This document shows positions 2,372 through 39,220 of a stretch of 64,000 nt of DNA, in pieces. The notes below the pieces were generated by a model, which was not told the origin of the DNA, made no database searches, and saw only the letters and a program-made list of their open reading frames with translations. A program made the translations under genes and the position numbers. Source of the stretch: Nitrospirota bacterium (GTDB lineage Bacteria > Nitrospirota > Thermodesulfovibrionia > Thermodesulfovibrionales > Dissulfurispiraceae); contig CAWBMP010000005.1 of NCBI GenBank assembly GCA_963790025.1, positions 256,001 through 320,000 of the forward strand. Direction: 5' to 3'. Each line of letters starts with the position of its first letter. Positions within the stretch are counted from its first letter, which is position 1.

Positions 2372-3802
2372 ATGAAAAGAGTAAGCGGAGCAAAGACTGT
2401 CTTAACCATTTTATCGGTAATGATTATCGGCAGTTTTTTGATTTCTCTTACAGCCTGTGAAAAAAATCACGGTGGTGATAAGGTAATTGGCTTTCCGCAA
2501 TCGTTTGCGGACCTCGCACAGCGGGTAGAACCGGCGGTTGTAAATATCAGCACTACATCCACTGTAAAAGTCCCGGGCAACCCATTCAGACAATTTTTCG
2601 GACCTGACCAGGGAAGCCCTTTTGGAGATTTTTTTCACAACTATTTCGGCGATATTCCCGACAGGACCCTGAAGCAGCAGAGCCTGGGTTCGGGGTTTAT
2701 AATCGATAAGGAAGGCTATATCATAACAAACAATCATGTTGTGGAGGATGCAGAGGAAATAAAGGTCAAACTCACCGATGGAAGGGAATTCAAGGCAAAG
2801 GTCATTGGGAAGGACCGTAAGACAGATCTTGCCTTGATCAAGATTTCATCTATATTCAAGGAACTCCCGACTATTTCTCTTGGAGATTCGGACGCGATTA
2901 GAGTTGGTGACTGGGTGCTTGCAGTAGGAAATCCTTTTGGACTCGAACACACTGTTACTCAGGGGATAATCAGCGCTACCGGCAGAGTAATAGGTGCAGG
3001 TCCATATGACAATTTTCTCCAGACTGATGCCCCTATCAACCCGGGAAACAGCGGAGGACCCCTGATCAACCTGAGGGGGGAAGTTATCGGAATCAATACC
3101 GCTATAATACAGAGCGGGCAGGGTATAGGCTTTTCCATCCCCGCCAAGATGGCCAGGGAGATAATCCCCCAGCTTAAAGCAAAAGGAAAGGTGGTAAGGG
3201 GATGGATAGGGGTATCAGTCCAAACTATAACGCCTGATTTATCACAGTCATTAGGTTTGCCGAGTACAAACGGTGCGCTCGTTGCAGATGTGGTGCCTGG
3301 CGGTCCCGCCGATTCTGCCGGCATCAAACAAGGTGATGTCATTGTCACCTTTGACGGGAAAGAGATCAAAAACAATTCAGATCTTTCTTTTGACGTTGCC
3401 GCAACGGAGATTGGAAAAACTGTCCCGGTGACGGTGCGAAGGAACTTAAAAGAGGTGACACTCAAGCTGACTGTAGCCGAAATGTCGGCCCAACAGGTCG
3501 CTTCTCAGATCCCTGTTCCACAGCGGATCGGGATGGCAGTAAATAATATAACTCCGGAATTAAAGAAAGAATTCGACATTAGAGAATCTAAAGGCGTTGT
3601 TGTAGTGTCCGTTGATCCAGGAAGTCCCGCAGACGATGCGGGCATTCAACCTGGTGATGTAATCAGGGAAGTGAACCGCATGCCGGTCAAGGATAATAGA
3701 GATTACGAAAGGGCAATGACCAAAACGGCGAAAGGCAACCAAAGCCTTTTACTAATTAAAAGAGGGGGACAGAATTTTTATGTTTCGCTTAGTGTCTCGT
3801 GA
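2372..3802 (+). CDS. DegP/HtrA (Do) family serine protease with two PDZ domains
   Basis: TNNHV, DLAL and PGNSGGPL catalytic motifs; two PDZ repeats; lipoprotein-like signal (LTAC); GGAGG RBS before ATG 2372. Confidence 0.95.
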   Translation: MKRVSGAKTVLTILSVMIIGSFLISLTACEKNHGGDKVIGFPQSFADLAQRVEPAVVNISTTSTVKVPGNPFRQFFGPDQGSPFGDFFHNYFGDIPDRTLKQQSLGSGFIIDKEGYIITNNHVVEDAEEIKVKLTDGREFKAKVIGKDRKTDLALIKISSIFKELPTISLGDSDAIRVGDWVLAVGNPFGLEHTVTQGIISATGRVIGAGPYDNFLQTDAPINPGNSGGPLINLRGEVIGINTAIIQSGQGIGFSIPAKMAREIIPQLKAKGKVVRGWIGVSVQTITPDLSQSLGLPSTNGALVADVVPGGPADSAGIKQGDVIVTFDGKEIKNNSDLSFDVAATEIGKTVPVTVRRNLKEVTLKLTVAEMSAQQVASQIPVPQRIGMAVNNITPELKKEFDIRESKGVVVVSVDPGSPADDAGIQPGDVIREVNRMPVKDNRDYERAMTKTAKGNQSLLLIKRGGQNFYVSLSVS

Positions 3803-33390: not shown

Positions 33391-35481
33391 CTGACGGAAA
33401 CTTCCTATCCAAAAGCAGCGTCGGCATCTCCCGACAGTATCAACAGGCGGCTGGAAGAGATCAAAGGAGTTGCTGCCGTTTTGGGCGGCCTTTACCTGGC
33501 CCTGGCCCTTTTCAGTTACAACAAATGGGAACGGTCGCTTTTCACTTTCTCGCAGACCCCGTCCGGAAACTACGGTGGCATCGCAGGCTCCTATATTTCT
33601 GATGCTGTAGTATCACTTCTGGGACTTGCAGGTTACCTGGTGCCGCTTTTACTGCTGGTCTACGGGTTAAGGAGGATACTGAGAAAAGAAAAGAGTATCC
33701 TGCATGCATTGGGCGTGGTCATTTTCTTCTTTTCCCTGTGTATGCTGGCGCAGCTATTGTCCGAGACCATCCGCCTTATCGTTGAGCCTGCCGGCGGACT
33801 GGTCGGGCTTTTTTCGGCAAACTTTTTTGAAGGGTTGCTCTCGCGAACCGGGACATATATATTGGGTAGCGCCCTTGTCATCATTGCGTTGGTCCTTCTG
33901 AGCCCAGTGTCCATTTTTTCATTCTTGAGAGGGGGGAAGAAAGACGAATTCCAGCGTAAGGGGCCTGCAGTTATTGTCCCGGAATCTCCGTTGTACCCCA
34001 TGGAGAATGAAGAAATACTTATAGAAAGAAAACCGCCTGCAAAAGCCCCACTGAAAGTAAGGACAGGCCTTGAAGTAAAGAGCGATAACGGCTATTCTCT
34101 CCCCTCGCTGGACTTTCTGAAAGAGGGCGAAGAAGTATCGGGACCCGGCAAGGATGAATTGAATACCATCGCGTCCGGTCTGGAACGAAAACTCGCGGAC
34201 TTCGGTGTAACTGGAAAGATAAAAGGGGCCCATCCCGGGCCGGTGGTCACGATGTATGAGTTCGAGCCGGCCGCCGGAGTCAAGATCAACAGAATCGTGT
34301 CCCTGTCCGAGGACCTGGCCCTTGCTCTCCGAGCGGCGAGCATACGCGTGTATCCCATTGCAGGCAAAGCTACCATTGGTATTGAAGTGCCGAACAGGCA
34401 AAGGGCAACGGTTGCCCTCAGGGAGATTATCGCTGCCGAAAACTTTCAGCACAGCACTTCTTTCCTGACACTCGCTCTCGGCAAGGACATTTTTGGTAAT
34501 CCTGTTGTGACCGATCTGGGAAAGATGCCGCATCTCATGGTTGCGGGAGCAACCGGCTCAGGCAAGAGCGTCTCCATCAATGCGATGATCATCAGTCTGC
34601 TGTATAAGGCGGCCCCCGAAGAGGTCAAGATGCTGATGATAGACCCGAAACTGCTGGAGCTTTCCGCCTATTCCGGTATTCCCCATCTGATATCGCCGGT
34701 GATAACCAGCCCGAAGGAGGCTTCTGAAGCCCTGAAGAAAATGGTATACGAGATGGAAAGGCGATACAGGCTTCTTGCTGAAAAGGGCGCGCGGAACATA
34801 GATGCATACAACCGGCATGCTTCCCAGGGCGAAAAAATGCCTTATATAGTAGTTTTTATAGACGAGCTGGCTGATTTGATGTTTACAGCGCAGGGCGATG
34901 TTGAGAATGCCATAACCCGGCTCGCCCAGATGGCGAGGGCGTCCGGCATCCATCTGATCCTTGCGACACAGCGGCCCTCTGTCGATGTCATTACCGGTCT
35001 GATCAAGGCAAACTTCCCGGCAAGGATATCGTTTCAGGTCACATCGAGAATTGATTCGAGGACTATCCTCGACAGTCAGGGAGCTGAGCAGCTGCTGGGC
35101 ATGGGAGATATGCTTCTTATGATCCCCGGCGTCAAGATTGTAAGAATTCATGGCGCCTATGTCAGCGAAACAGAGATCAAAACTGTAGCGGAATTCGTCA
35201 AGTCGCAGGGAACACCCGACTACACGTCCTTTGAAAATATTGTAGTGCCCGACTTGCAGGAGAAGGGAATTGATGGGACGGGCGAAAGGGACGAAATGTA
35301 TCAGAAGGTGCTCGGTTTTGCCGAGTCTGCCGGAGAGGTTTCTATATCATCAATACAACGGAGATTCAAAATAGGATATAACAGGGCGGCGAGTATCATG
35401 GAGCTTTTTGAAGAGGACGGCCTGGTCGGGCCGCCGAGAGGGGCTGGAAAACCGAGAGACTTTCTGGGGAGGAGAGGATAA
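33391..35481 (+). CDS. ftsK: DNA translocase FtsK (4TM N-terminus, motor, gamma domain)
   Basis: GPVVTMYE, AGATGSGKS, IDELAD, LATQRPS, IGYNRAA; reading frame stays open upstream of the tracked start to CTG 33391. Confidence 0.93.
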   Translation: MTETSYPKAASASPDSINRRLEEIKGVAAVLGGLYLALALFSYNKWERSLFTFSQTPSGNYGGIAGSYISDAVVSLLGLAGYLVPLLLLVYGLRRILRKEKSILHALGVVIFFFSLCMLAQLLSETIRLIVEPAGGLVGLFSANFFEGLLSRTGTYILGSALVIIALVLLSPVSIFSFLRGGKKDEFQRKGPAVIVPESPLYPMENEEILIERKPPAKAPLKVRTGLEVKSDNGYSLPSLDFLKEGEEVSGPGKDELNTIASGLERKLADFGVTGKIKGAHPGPVVTMYEFEPAAGVKINRIVSLSEDLALALRAASIRVYPIAGKATIGIEVPNRQRATVALREIIAAENFQHSTSFLTLALGKDIFGNPVVTDLGKMPHLMVAGATGSGKSVSINAMIISLLYKAAPEEVKMLMIDPKLLELSAYSGIPHLISPVITSPKEASEALKKMVYEMERRYRLLAEKGARNIDAYNRHASQGEKMPYIVVFIDELADLMFTAQGDVENAITRLAQMARASGIHLILATQRPSVDVITGLIKANFPARISFQVTSRIDSRTILDSQGAEQLLGMGDMLLMIPGVKIVRIHGAYVSETEIKTVAEFVKSQGTPDYTSFENIVVPDLQEKGIDGTGERDEMYQKVLGFAESAGEVSISSIQRRFKIGYNRAASIMELFEEDGLVGPPRGAGKPRDFLGRRG

Positions 35482-35678
35482 TGAAGGCAAAAGGCAACAA
35501 AAGGCAAAGGGCGAAGGGCGAAGGGCTAAAGGCAGAGGCAAGAACACAAAACAGAGAACAAGAGACAAAAAATAAAAATGGGAAGTCTGTTTTCTGTTGT
35601 TTTTCGTTTTTTGTTTTTAGTTTTTTGTTTTTAACCTTCAGTCTTTTGCCTTTAGCCATTTGCCCTTTGTCTTTTGCC
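35481..35678. repeat. Nested inverted heptamer arrays inside the lolA 5' end
   Basis: AAGGCAA/AGGGCGA-type then AAAACAA-type units, followed by TTTGTTT-type then TTTGCCT-type complementary units. Confidence 0.75.
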
Positions 35679-36227
35679 GGCGACGAGGTTGCGAGGATTC
35701 AAAAGGCCTACGAGAATATAAAAGACATTAAGGGGAATTTTGTCCAGAAAAGTTACATTAAGGATTTAAAGAGAACGGATACTTACAGCGGTCAATTTTT
35801 TATAAAGCCGCCTAAAATAAAATGGGAATTCAGGGGAGACAGGCCGCAGGCGATTTATATGAATGGTGAAGAGCTGCTTATTTATCAAAAGAAGGAAAAG
35901 CAGGTCTTCAAGACAAAATTCGATAAGGCCGCTTACGGCCAGATACCTATTGCGCTGCTTGGCGGTTTTGGTGATATCAATAAAGAATTTGATGCCTCCA
36001 TGAAAGCAGGGAAGTTGATACTTAAACCCAGAAAGAGGATGGGCACTATTGTCCGGATAGAGCTCACCTTGGCGGATGCGGTGTTTCCAATCGAAGCGCT
36101 TACCGTTCTGGACACGGCTTCTAATAGAATTGATATTACCCTGAAAGATGTCAAAATTAATACCGGGCTCGACGAAAGAACCTTCGAGTTCACGCCCCCT
36201 GAAGGCGTCGCTGTTATTCAACAGTGA
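35481..36227 (+). CDS. lolA: Outer-membrane lipoprotein carrier LolA-like protein
   Basis: ftsK-lolA synteny; FxQ, G+PPKxKW and FxFTPPxG features; long signal peptide ending LSFA. Confidence 0.85.
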   Translation: MKAKGNKRQRAKGEGLKAEARTQNREQETKNKNGKSVFCCFSFFVFSFLFLTFSLLPLAICPLSFAGDEVARIQKAYENIKDIKGNFVQKSYIKDLKRTDTYSGQFFIKPPKIKWEFRGDRPQAIYMNGEELLIYQKKEKQVFKTKFDKAAYGQIPIALLGGFGDINKEFDASMKAGKLILKPRKRMGTIVRIELTLADAVFPIEALTVLDTASNRIDITLKDVKINTGLDERTFEFTPPEGVAVIQQ

Positions 36228-36294: not shown

Positions 36295-37137
36295 TCAGGA
36301 GCTGTAGTATCTGCCGTTGACTTCGTCAGCTATGATGGCAAAATTGGCCTTTGAGGTTTCAAGAGGATCGGATTTCCACGAAAAGCCAATAGAAGGCACC
36401 TCAACCTTGGCCTCAAGCTGAGCGATGGCCTTGAAGCCCTCCACACGACATTGTTTCTGCGGATCATTGAAAAATATCTTCTCGTTGGTGGCTTTCCAGA
36501 CTATCAGGATATCCATCACGGCAGGAGTTGCCGGCGCCATGAACTGGGGCCATTTGGGCTGGTCAATTATGCTTAACCCCTTCATCCGAAGGGTTGCTGT
36601 CCGCCCGTCATCGCTGAACGTTAGGCCCCCCTGTGGAACGGGCGCCACCCAGTAAAGGCCACACGGCCCGACCGGGGGGTGAAAATCATGGACCTGATTC
36701 GCGGGGTCCAACTGACCCTTAAAGAGGGTTAGTCATAAATGTGTAAAGGTCCCATTATGGGCTGTTCGCCCCGTGAAATATTCGCCCTGCATAAAAGAGT
36801 TATCGGTTGTTGGGTTTCCGAAGGCAAGCCGGTTCCCCTTGTTGTCTGTCCCCATGCCCGAAAAATCCGCGCAGCGGGCTATCTTACCTTTGAAATGGTA
36901 GATGTGCGATGGTTCCTTATCGAGGCCTGCCGGCTGATTGTGGCTGCCGTTCTTGTCGAGCCAGGGTATGGGAAAGGGGTACGTGCTATTGTCATAGACA
37001 AAAGGATTCGATTCGGCAGGATTGGCTTCGGCGTTAGCCAGTCCAGGGAGAGCAGAGGCCGCCGCAAGCGCCACCCCTGACGTTAGAAAGCGCCTTCTGC
37101 TGAAGCCACGATTAAATAATGGAATCTCCTCATTCAT
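36295..37137 (-). CDS. Tat-exported hypothetical protein; one reading frame interrupted by an in-frame TGA (36733-36735)
   Basis: SRRRFL twin-arginine signal; GAGGA RBS; ORFs 36733..37137 and 36295..36711 share a frame with 7 sense codons between them. Confidence 0.6.
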
Positions 37138-37302
37138 ATGTTTTCCTCCTTCTTGGATTTACACTCAAGAGGAGCGCTGAAAGCGCTCTTAATTACAATG
37201 TTAGCACCTGATTAGAAGGCGGTCAATCGAATGGCAACGTCGCACTGATACTCATCAGGGGCTATTTTGTTTTAAAAAGGAGCGGCTGAATAGCAGCTCA
37301 CA

Positions 37303-38163
37303 TCATTCGCCCACTTCAGGCACGACAGGCTTTCCCGAAAGCCAGTCGGTGATCGCGTTGACAGCCTTATCCTCGATACCAATATATCCGTGATGCGACA
37401 TCGCCTTGCACGGATCTACAATCATCTTCGTGTGCTTGCCGGAGACCTTGGGGCCGTCTTCGGGAGACGAGCCGCCGTAGACCTCGATGAAGTCAACTTT
37501 AGGACTCCCTTTCAAGCGCCTTTTCAGATCAAAGGCTTCCCCGATAGGTGTCGCTGAGCACCCGTCGTCGCGGTGATGCATTAAAAGTACGGGTATCGAT
37601 ATCTTCTCCAGAGGCAACCCTCCAACATACTGACCTCCCATGGTCGATGTCAGGACGACCCCTTTCAGCTCTTCATCTTTCAGAACAGTGGCAAGATACG
37701 CAACGGAAATAGTACCTCTGCTCGTCCCGACAAGATAAAAGTGATCAAGCTTCTTTTCCTTTAAGAATTCGATGATCTTTTTGATGTCCTGCGCGTGCTC
37801 GGGCGATCTTCGGAAATTATCGGACATGCCGTCTTCATGGTCCGAAGGCACATCTATGATCGCAACCGCGAATCCCTTCCGGACGAATACCGGAGATGTC
37901 CTAACCAGAAAGTTTGCGCCGAGAGTTATCTGTCCGTTATGTACTGAAAAATGTCCTTCTCCGTGGCTCCCGGGGAAAAGGAGAAGAGTCCCTTTCGATG
38001 CTGTGTCCGGTATATTAAGCAGAAACTGGATAGTCGCACCAGGCCGGGTTTCAATTTTTTGAATGCTCTGCTCAGCCTCGGCCTGATCTTTTACCATGAA
38101 TGCACTCGTGACTGCAAATGCCAGTAGGAATAGAAACCGCATGGTCGATTTATTTTTCTTCAT
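37303..38163 (-). CDS. Secreted alpha/beta hydrolase
   Basis: Signal peptide; GTSRG nucleophile elbow; HHRDD and HHGY. Confidence 0.8.
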   Translation of the reverse strand: MKKNKSTMRFLFLLAFAVTSAFMVKDQAEAEQSIQKIETRPGATIQFLLNIPDTASKGTLLLFPGSHGEGHFSVHNGQITLGANFLVRTSPVFVRKGFAVAIIDVPSDHEDGMSDNFRRSPEHAQDIKKIIEFLKEKKLDHFYLVGTSRGTISVAYLATVLKDEELKGVVLTSTMGGQYVGGLPLEKISIPVLLMHHRDDGCSATPIGEAFDLKRRLKGSPKVDFIEVYGGSSPEDGPKVSGKHTKMIVDPCKAMSHHGYIGIEDKAVNAITDWLSGKPVVPEVGE

Positions 38164-38398
38164 ACTTGTCACCCCGCCAAATTATTTCCCGGAACAATCA
38201 TTCCGGGCCATCTGTTCATTCAAATCGATTTGAGGTATATATATTTTTTCAAAACAATCAACCTGTCATAAAACAATGCGAGATTAAATATATCACATTC
38301 CTTACTATCCAGTTACCGGCTTTATTCTCTTTGGACAGCTGTCGCTTGACCTCTATCCGATAACTACACATATAATAAACATATTAAAGGGGACCCAT

Positions 38399-39220
38399 AT
38401 GAGTGTGAATGCACATATTTTGCGAAATGGGCTTTGGGCGTGCTTGCTTCTCTTATCATTTGTGTCCTTCCTGCATGCCGCCGACGAAATGGCAGCGATT
38501 GGTACTAAACCACAGACAGGAGGGGCCACATACCGGGATTCCAGTACCGGCATGGAGTTCGTTTATGTCAAGGGTGGATGTTATCAGATGAAGTATGTGA
38601 TGGGCAATAGCAAATTGTCGCAAGAAAAGTCTGTTGATGAAGTCTGCGTGGACGATTTTTACATGGGGAAATATCCCGTGACGCAGGGACAATGGAAAGC
38701 AGTCATGGGAAATAATCCTTCATACTTTAATGACTGCGGGGACAATTGTCCTGTTGAGCAGGTCAGTTGGAATGACGCACAGGAATTCATATGTAAACTG
38801 AATAGTCGTTCAGGGGAGAACAAATATCGTCTGCCAACAGAAGCAGAATGGGAATATGCGGCAAGAAACGGTGGAAAAAACGAGCAATATGCAGAAGGCA
38901 AAGATGTTGAGAGTGTCGCGTGGTACGCTTCTAACTCCGGCAGAAAAGAAACGCATCCTGTAGGAAGCAGGACGGCAAACGGGCTTGGCTTGTATGACAT
39001 GCATGGCAATATTTATGAATGGTTGCAGGACAGGAGTTACGGCAGTTACTACACCAATAGTCTGAGAAAGAATTCTGATGGCCCAGTTTCCAGCGGTGGC
39101 CGCGTTGTTCGGGGCAGCAGTTGGGGCCACGGACCCGGTTACTCGCGGACTTCCCCCTCCTTCTACCTCCCGGTCAATCGTAACTACCTTATTGGGTTTC
39201 GTCTTCTGCGGACTCAATAG
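38399..39220 (+). CDS. Formylglycine-generating-enzyme (FGE/SUMF1) domain protein
   Basis: YPVTQ, PVEQVSW, RLPTEAEWEYAAR, GLYDMHGN, GFRL. Confidence 0.9.
   Translation: MSVNAHILRNGLWACLLLLSFVSFLHAADEMAAIGTKPQTGGATYRDSSTGMEFVYVKGGCYQMKYVMGNSKLSQEKSVDEVCVDDFYMGKYPVTQGQWKAVMGNNPSYFNDCGDNCPVEQVSWNDAQEFICKLNSRSGENKYRLPTEAEWEYAARNGGKNEQYAEGKDVESVAWYASNSGRKETHPVGSRTANGLGLYDMHGNIYEWLQDRSYGSYYTNSLRKNSDGPVSSGGRVVRGSSWGHGPGYSRTSPSFYLPVNRNYLIGFRLLRTQ

Follow-up and report, generated by a model that had tools for sequence, protein, structure and literature searches.

The alpha subunit of formate dehydrogenase (FdhA / FdnG type) is the classical selenoprotein exported via twin-arginine translocation (Tat). 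For selenoproteins, homologs with Cys in place of selenocysteine (Sec) are normally abundant. Bacterial genes in which the bacterial Sec insertion sequence (bSECIS) lies inside the open reading frame (ORF) share an in-frame UGA, a hairpin downstream of it and the genes selA/selB/selC/selD, following the model of Zhang and Gladyshev in the form in which PMC13188914 summarizes it. A review of May 2026 listed 119 families and subfamilies of prokaryotic selenoproteins and gave an InterPro-type identifier for each; nearly all of these identifiers are Pfam, TIGRFAM or NCBIfam models (PMC13188914, Table 1). Here, we describe a gene interrupted by an in-frame TGA on the minus strand (36295..37137) of a 64,000-nucleotide stretch of DNA from a Nitrospirota bacterium (assembly GCA_963790025.1, contig CAWBMP010000005.1, positions 256,001 to 320,000), which we refer to as the window. 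Judging from the sequences of the gene and its relatives, this UGA (36735..36733) is very likely read as Sec, and the encoded protein appears to represent a selenoprotein family not described before.

Mechanistically, the gene is no different from other bacterial genes with an in-ORF bSECIS, and its hairpin is at the weak end (5 bp, -7.9 kcal/mol); the recoding mechanism would be the ordinary bacterial one, and so the gene does not represent a novel type of system. The family itself is unusual in that it combines a predicted Tat-type signal with a barrel that is not a thioredoxin fold, has neither CxxU nor UxxC, and almost never replaces Sec with Cys. The twin-arginine signal and Sec in a periplasmic protein, both predicted here, recall the FdhA / FdnG type. 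However, the large enzyme FdhA contains molybdopterin, and its Sec is a ligand of Mo or W. The FdhA motif is UHxP (PMC13188914, Table 1), whereas the window protein has 280 residues, an all-beta barrel and the motif H-x-U-L-T-L-F, and matches no Pfam or NCBIfam model. The orphan families DG, DW and DF, hypothetical proteins identified with deep-Sep (PMC12013277), and GOS_B and GOS_C likewise lack a known domain and have a conserved TGA with a SECIS-like hairpin; their models are NF049953, NF041197, NF049942, NF041374 and NF045500 (PMC13188914, Table 1). The window protein matched none of these models, and the orphan families were accepted on the basis of many Cys homologs, which are rare here.

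The gene starts at an ATG (37137..37135) and contains 280 sense codons, including one Sec codon, before the terminal TGA at 36297..36295. A Shine-Dalgarno sequence, AAGGAGG (37145..37151, minus strand), can be read 7 nt before the ATG and presumably serves it. As an earlier note on this DNA had proposed, the translation runs in one frame throughout and gives a 280-aa product: MNEEIPLFNRGFSRRRFLTSG...GTFTHL, then TGA 36735..36733, then LTLFKGQLDPANQVHDFHPP... up to the final stop. Homology in related loci also extends in a single frame across query residues 1-279. Under the standard bacterial code (table 11), the region is divided into a 134-aa ORF and a 138-aa ORF; the latter has TTG 36711 as its sole start, with AAGGG 4 nt ahead of it, and has no signal peptide, in agreement with the earlier description of this half as TTG-started and without export signal. 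In the explanation we favor, a single gene encodes a periplasmic selenoprotein that is exported via Tat. At the internal UGA, the hairpin 19 nt downstream would recruit SelB carrying Sec-tRNA(Sec), Sec would enter as residue 135, and translation would run on to the stop at 36297..36295. The folded 280-residue precursor would then be exported via Tat, its signal probably being cleaved after Ala36, and the mature protein would be a closed beta-barrel with Sec135 at the start of a strand.

The codon aligned to the window TGA was read in two sets of relatives. Genome loci were the best 80 of 121 relative-encoding stretches in a species-representative genome collection, and metagenome loci were 80 kept of at least 474 such stretches on JGI and ENA contigs. 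The codon was TGA in 80/80 genome loci and in 80/80 metagenome loci (77 by pattern and 3 by inspection), and neither TAA nor TAG was found at this position in any of the 160. The two halves, whose linkage the earlier note had treated as decisive together with the aligned codon, were always linked and in the same frame; identity across both was 55-86%, and the zero-length junction was kept in all 160 loci. The genome loci carried four phylum labels, i.e., Nitrospirota, 'delta proteobacterium'/Syntrophaceae/Desulfomonilaceae/Syntrophorhabdales, many Acidobacteriota, and Verrucomicrobia. The loci are not copies of one sequence because 78 distinct junction sequences were present among the 80 genome loci. 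A pseudogene, a nonsense mutation or a sequencing error in the window genome has next to no probability in view of the same TGA in 160/160 independent loci and purifying conservation on both sides of it, even though broken or misassembled copies do occur. L011, the closest relative (85% identical, from a metagenome-assembled genome of Nitrospirota), has an extra in-frame TAG at 3130-3132 after the signal peptide (…EADLS*SKPF…) besides the conserved TGA, and this copy is either broken or misassembled.

In contrast to the internal codon, the true stop of the gene varied freely: it was TGA in 43, TAG in 20 and TAA in 17 genome loci, and TAG in 42, TGA in 20 and TAA in 16 metagenome loci, with two run-offs. 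These organisms thus use TGA as an ordinary stop, and fixation is confined to the internal TGA. This observation bears on a reassigned genetic code (4 or 25) with TGA as a Trp or Gly codon, which might be suggested by the database proteins. A homolog search with the read-through protein yielded 212 homologs; among the best 120, 97 were N-terminal pieces ending right before the TGA (...F-[T/A]-H-[I/T/L]), and 8 were otherwise truncated or frameshifted. The remaining 15 extended across it: 10 had W there, 2 had G, and 3 were garbled. The ten close proteins with W are what reassignment would predict, but the gene itself ends in TGA in the window as well as in the 43 genome loci, and other genes, for example those for SelA and SelB, are open under table 11. 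Also, P0007, a database protein with W at the site, is identical around it to contigs whose codon is TGA and which come from otherwise table-11 lineages, and its W is therefore a gene-calling artefact. We regard reassignment as having almost no likelihood.

The same database pieces are one reason to consider two separate genes, in which the UGA would be a true stop and the downstream half would be re-initiated at TTG 36711 or remain untranslated. Gene callers annotate the locus in this way in 97 of the best 120 homologs, and the window does have the TTG with AAGGG 4 nt upstream. In 51/80 genome loci, however, no in-frame ATG, GTG or TTG occurs within 15 codons after the TGA, which argues against a separately initiated downstream gene. 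Besides, this explanation does not account for the frame and zero-length junction, which are invariant in 160 loci, or for a modelled barrel that runs across the junction (strands 125-133 and 136-140), and it would deprive the downstream half of an export signal, even though this half and the exported one make up a single domain. Two genes are thus a highly improbable arrangement, and a single gene recoded at the internal UGA is the explanation followed below.

The hairpin reported in the earlier note was found as described, 19 nt from the UGA to the loop. It occupies 36702..36720 on the minus strand and consists of GGGUC (36718..36714), the loop AGUUG (36713..36709) and GACCC (36708..36704); the second loop base is G, and the next is U. 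According to the Fig. 2 legend of PMC13188914, the bacterial SECIS model requires a loop of 3-9 nt, a stem of 4-16 bp, G within the first two loop positions, a UGA-loop distance of 16-37 nt and a minimum free energy (MFE) of -7.5 kcal/mol or lower. With a 5-bp stem, a 5-nt loop, G at position 2, a 19-nt distance and -7.9 kcal/mol, the window hairpin fits the model as that legend states it, a comparison that the earlier note had proposed. The same hairpin in four relatives gave -13.8, -13.8, -12.6 and -7.5 kcal/mol, so the window value contrasts with -12.6 to -13.8 in three of the four.

Covariation was analyzed in a gap-free alignment of 75-nt junctions from the window and the 80 genome loci (79 distinct rows) by explicit pair counting, with 3' partners slid by 1-3 columns and 500 shuffles as controls. 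In the family, the helix extends to up to 8 bp (columns 22-29 with 33-40). Standard pairs made up 92.1% of its cells, compared with 33.7-55.1% with slid partners, and double changes were seen in 86 cells, compared with 1-13; the observed value was reached in 0/500 shuffles, a control that is no probability as the aligned sequences share kinship. Compensatory changes were found at three pairs: 23-39 (GC 40, AU 31), 27-35 (AU 46, GC 20, UA 2, GU 8) and 29-33 (AU 37, CG 33). These covarying pairs join synonymous third positions (Pro, Gly, Ala/Leu) to amino-acid-changing second positions (K/R/Q, D/A/V, Q/P), a pattern that protein constraint alone cannot yield. Loop position 2 was G in 80/80 genome loci, with the loop sequences AGGCT (35), CGGCG (30), AGTTG (8), CGTTG (3), AGGTT (2), AGTCT (1) and CGGTG (1). 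The alternative stem adjoining the UGA, which the earlier note had also mentioned, does exist and belongs to the MFE fold of the window's 59 nt, but as a candidate SECIS it was rejected: it was 68.4% paired, 122/500 shuffles were as high, and it had one double-change cell, so it is not conserved.

The window genome (3.45 Mb, 98.8% complete) contained all four genes of the Sec machinery, for which the earlier note had proposed a check. SelA was detected with 509.5 bits, SelB with 69.1 bits for its wing domain in a 647-aa frame, and tRNA-Sec with 68.2 bits and the anticodon UCA. The selD gene (320 bits; G000:C4:824216-825151, locus L171, outside the window) has one in-frame TGA; it is itself a predicted selenoprotein gene, and the organism would therefore depend on Sec decoding. 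Among carrier genomes of other lineages, SelA was present in 10/10 and SelB in 5/5 tested.

The conserved codon, the covarying hairpin and the machinery together support the proposal of the earlier note that Sec is inserted here in a non-CxxU context. The same note had offered, as a second possibility, programmed read-through, in which a near-cognate tRNA (Trp, Cys or Arg) would decode UGA-C independently of SelB and short and long periplasmic isoforms would result. C does follow the TGA in most loci (74/80 genome loci and 69/77 metagenome loci counted), UGA-C was called a weak termination context in that note, and one can conceive of a truncated product of 134 residues that carries a Tat signal. 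Nevertheless, read-through leaves unexplained the covarying hairpin, the G at loop position 2 and the SECIS distance, the exclusive use of TGA in 160 loci with no TAG or TAA, and the replacements by Cys, Ser and Gly together with the invariant flanking residues; SelA was also found in all 11 carrier genomes tested (10 relatives and the window's own). We found no specific support for the two isoforms, nor are they needed, and consider read-through very improbable compared with Sec insertion.

To place the family more broadly, we turn to a profile search of 1.84 billion representatives, which gave 655 matches at E <= 0.001, mostly half-length pieces. Proteins that spanned the site had S (P0122), E (P0123), G (P0009), W (P0124, P0192 and P0204) or C (P0258). 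The last three of these proteins (P0192, P0204 and P0258) delimit a subfamily that shares 27-33% identity with the window protein and is homologous to it over its whole length (hhalign probability 99.9). Among 89 matches of this distant subfamily, 63 were N-terminal halves that stop one residue short of the aligned column, a number of them stemming from NCBI table-11 annotation, including one labelled Ktedonobacterales, whereas those spanning the column comprised 16 with W, 3 with C and 1 with S. The stop is conserved in both subfamilies, and thus the internal stop predates their split. Cys forms were found as three clusters of database protein sequences (P0258, P0271 and P0310), all in the distant subfamily; the subfamily of the window protein yielded none. 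The codons for Ser (TCA), Gly (GGA), Trp (TGG) and Cys (TGY) are each one base away from TGA. In five full-length proteins, P0122, P0123, P0009, P0019 and P0276, the Sec column was occupied by Ser, Glu or Gly and the flanking H-x-U and HDFHP motifs were altered; by their sequences, these proteins look like Sec-less paralogs whose function may be altered or lost.

The family occurs widely among Acidobacteriota of soil and peat and among anaerobic members of Nitrospirota and Desulfobacterota. Within the phylum of the window genome it is rare, with 2/151 sampled genomes including that of the window and 0/8 of the same family. Most loci came from Acidobacteriota. This distribution points to a patchy spread, which is probably horizontal.

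Several observations weigh against the reading of the UGA as Sec and against Tat export. First, Cys homologs, which would be expected in number, are rare (3 clusters) and known from protein sequences. Second, the RNA evidence is not uniform: unguided RNAalifold on the 81-sequence junction alignment returned a 3-pair, register-shifted stem of -1.39 kcal/mol with no compensatory pair; the 59-nt MFE fold of the window consists of the alternative stem (ACCCU/AGGGU by the UGA) and another 3' hairpin; isolated hairpins had modest z-scores (-0.5 to -2.5); and the kinship of the aligned sequences, mentioned above, applies to the shuffles. Third, the codon was read in only part of the relatives (80 of 121 in genomes and 80 of at least 474 in metagenomes), and it was checked for only 1/10 of the close W proteins (P0007). 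Fourth, co-occurrence with SelA is consistent yet uninformative because 100/121 sampled Acidobacteriota genomes have SelA (a background count that takes in two unpublished genomes, G204 and G179). Finally, the Pfam TAT_signal model matched residues 12-31 with 18.4 bits, below its cut-off of 22.7; on P0258 it scored 20.1 bits.

With regard to known families, searches with the whole protein and both halves gave no Pfam-A family besides the sub-threshold TAT_signal and no match in NCBIfam 20.0 at E <= 0.1, and the protein therefore matches none of the model-backed families among the 119 catalogued. The few catalogued families that have just a cd or PTHR identifier are, judging from their names, thioredoxin-like, CopZ-like, BtuF or Fe-S oxidoreductase families. 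Among recent resources, BSepDB (2026) was assembled through homology to families reported before (PMC13326102), and deep-Sep added nine new families with NCBIfam models and, according to its authors, may miss selenoproteins lacking Cys homologs (PMC12013277). In searches of the full-text literature, excluding the supplementary tables of the catalogue papers, we found no description of a selenoprotein with a Tat signal, a beta-barrel or H-x-U. A language-model feature search with the Cys form P0258 placed DUF1838 (PF08894) clusters nearest among the named ones (score 0.94, 26/30 matches). Membership in DUF1838 was not supported: 0/10 homologs matched its hidden Markov model at E <= 10, and hhalign probabilities were 0.2% and 0.07%, against a DUF1838 profile of 3 members, which leaves room for a very remote link.

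The N-terminus of the protein resembles a Tat signal peptide (37030..37137, minus strand, residues 1-36). The Tat consensus consists of S/T-R-R-x-F-L-K, a hydrophobic stretch and an A-x-A site; the window protein has S-R-R-R-F-L-T beginning at S13, a hydrophobic stretch and A-N-A, with predicted cleavage after A36. R14-R15 were invariant in a 46-row alignment whose rows were selected for RR. The signal is followed by a highly conserved segment of the mature protein (36895..36990, minus strand, residues 50-81), P-x-P-I-P-W-L-D-K-N-G-S-H66-N-Q ... E-P-S-x-I-Y-H-F, which is seen in the alignment of both subfamilies and is not confidently modelled. An AlphaFold2 model built with 46 read-through homologs had a mean predicted local distance difference test score (pLDDT) of 74 and a predicted template modelling score of 0.73; residues 77-280 (36298..36909, minus strand) were confident and all-beta, whereas pLDDT was <50 for residues 1-76. 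In this modelled beta-barrel domain, which carries Sec135, Gln148, His150 and Asp151, Sec135 lies between strands 125-133 and 136-140; H133, U135, T137 and F139 alternate along the strand, and D151 and H153 are on the next one.

No match to the model was found with Foldseek in PDB at E <= 0.001, nor did a profile searched against PDB sequences produce any at E <= 10. Exhaustive structural alignment returned closed antiparallel barrels over residues 80-275 with 2-12% identity, and for the modelled domain this is a fold class rather than a family assignment. The outer-membrane barrels 9nh2_A (Z 10.7), NspA 1p4t_A (Z 10.0) and OmpA 3nb3_A (Z 9.2) belong to the same fold class, with a root-mean-square deviation of 4.0-4.5 over 128-142 residues, and are only slightly above the background stated for the tool, where a best Z of 7-8 is typical without a true match. 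Soluble barrels of the same class (TbpB, hemophilin, fHbp, AttH, YceI and nitrobindin-like) had Z 5.6-7.8. Eight-stranded outer-membrane barrels (OmpA / NspA / OmpX-like) are marked by a Sec-type signal peptide and a lipid-facing hydrophobic belt. The predicted signal of the window protein is of the Tat type, which would favor a soluble barrel in the periplasm over one in the outer membrane.

Residues conserved in both subfamilies are P54-x-P-I-P, H66, E75-P-S, D112, U135, Q148, H150, D151, W163, D192, W214 and N274-G, whereas H81, H133, T137 and H153 are specific to the window subfamily, the other having D, F, D and N at these positions. The Sec codon (36733..36735) lies in the motif H133-L-U135-L-T-L-F, and His133 was invariant in the 160 loci apart from the metagenome locus L151, which has Asn in this column (…FTNI-TGA-LTLF…). 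The alignment contained no conserved Cys that might be a resolving partner; in several rows, S takes the place of C89. On the basis of this conservation and of the lack of a conserved resolving Cys, Sec135 is therefore proposed to act with His66, His150, Asp151 and Gln148. These residues and Sec135, with His133 and His153 in the window subfamily, would most likely form a redox-active or metal/chalcogen-binding site. A redox-catalytic role of Sec135 is a tentative but reasonable suggestion, and that it may serve as a metal or metalloid ligand is put forward with somewhat more reserve. More speculatively, and with some doubt on our side, the proteins could be a near-obligate exported beta-barrel selenoenzyme family outside the thioredoxin fold, in which Sec135, His66, His150, Asp151 and Gln148 make up a new periplasmic selenium site. 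If true, this could be a mononuclear metal center with a selenolate ligand or a Sec-His-Asp/Gln catalytic center, and a site chemistry beyond the reach of Cys would explain the near-absence of Cys forms.

The gene is systematically mis-annotated as two hypothetical proteins. The 97 and 63 clusters that are N-terminal stumps ending at the Sec codon illustrate this, and NCBI labels those stumps 'hypothetical protein'. Inclusion of the family in selenoprotein catalogues and annotation rules would repair hundreds of gene models from soil, peat and sediment. Cys forms are very scarce, so methods based on Cys/Sec pairs and deep-Sep, which require Cys homologs, would tend to miss the family. The family would extend exported selenoproteins beyond formate dehydrogenases and hydrogenases to a fold unlike that of thioredoxin and to a Sec context other than CxxU or UxxC. 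It also offers a case for asking why Sec is kept, and it may be relevant to the demand for selenium in soils rich in Acidobacteriota.

In the window, the gene is preceded on the same strand by a gene at 37303..38172 (minus strand) for a protein with a signal peptide and weak, sub-threshold alpha/beta-hydrolase matches, beyond which lies a secreted FGE-sulfatase-domain protein (38399..39220, plus strand, E 4.6e-41). The convergent neighbor (35481..36227, plus strand) belongs to the LolA family and has an unusually long Lys/Glu-rich N-terminal extension. A contig of 179 nt from an RNA library (36804..36982) lies within the gene; it stops short of the TGA, and the library may contain DNA. A promoter-like site at 37226..37198 (minus strand) had a score no better than that of shuffled sequences. 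In the 5' leader of the selenoprotein gene, which lies 166 nt downstream of the hydrolase-like gene, and between this site and the Shine-Dalgarno sequence, a GC-rich inverted repeat, GAGCGCU-UUC-AGCGCUC (37172..37190, minus strand), was read by eye. Neighbor clustering across the 80 genome loci, with antisense shadow ORFs removed, revealed no conserved gene partner. Long antisense open frames overlapped the gene in 33/80 genome loci (e.g., L045:1609-3654, minus strand) and are most likely shadow ORFs. The sole recurrent neighbor was a DUF302 (PF03625) protein in 9/80 genome loci (L022, L038, L060, L061, L062, L073, L086, L089 and L090), other clusters occurring in no more than 4/80. These DUF302 genes belong to several lineages, have either orientation and sit about 0.2-0.9 kb upstream of the selenoprotein gene start.

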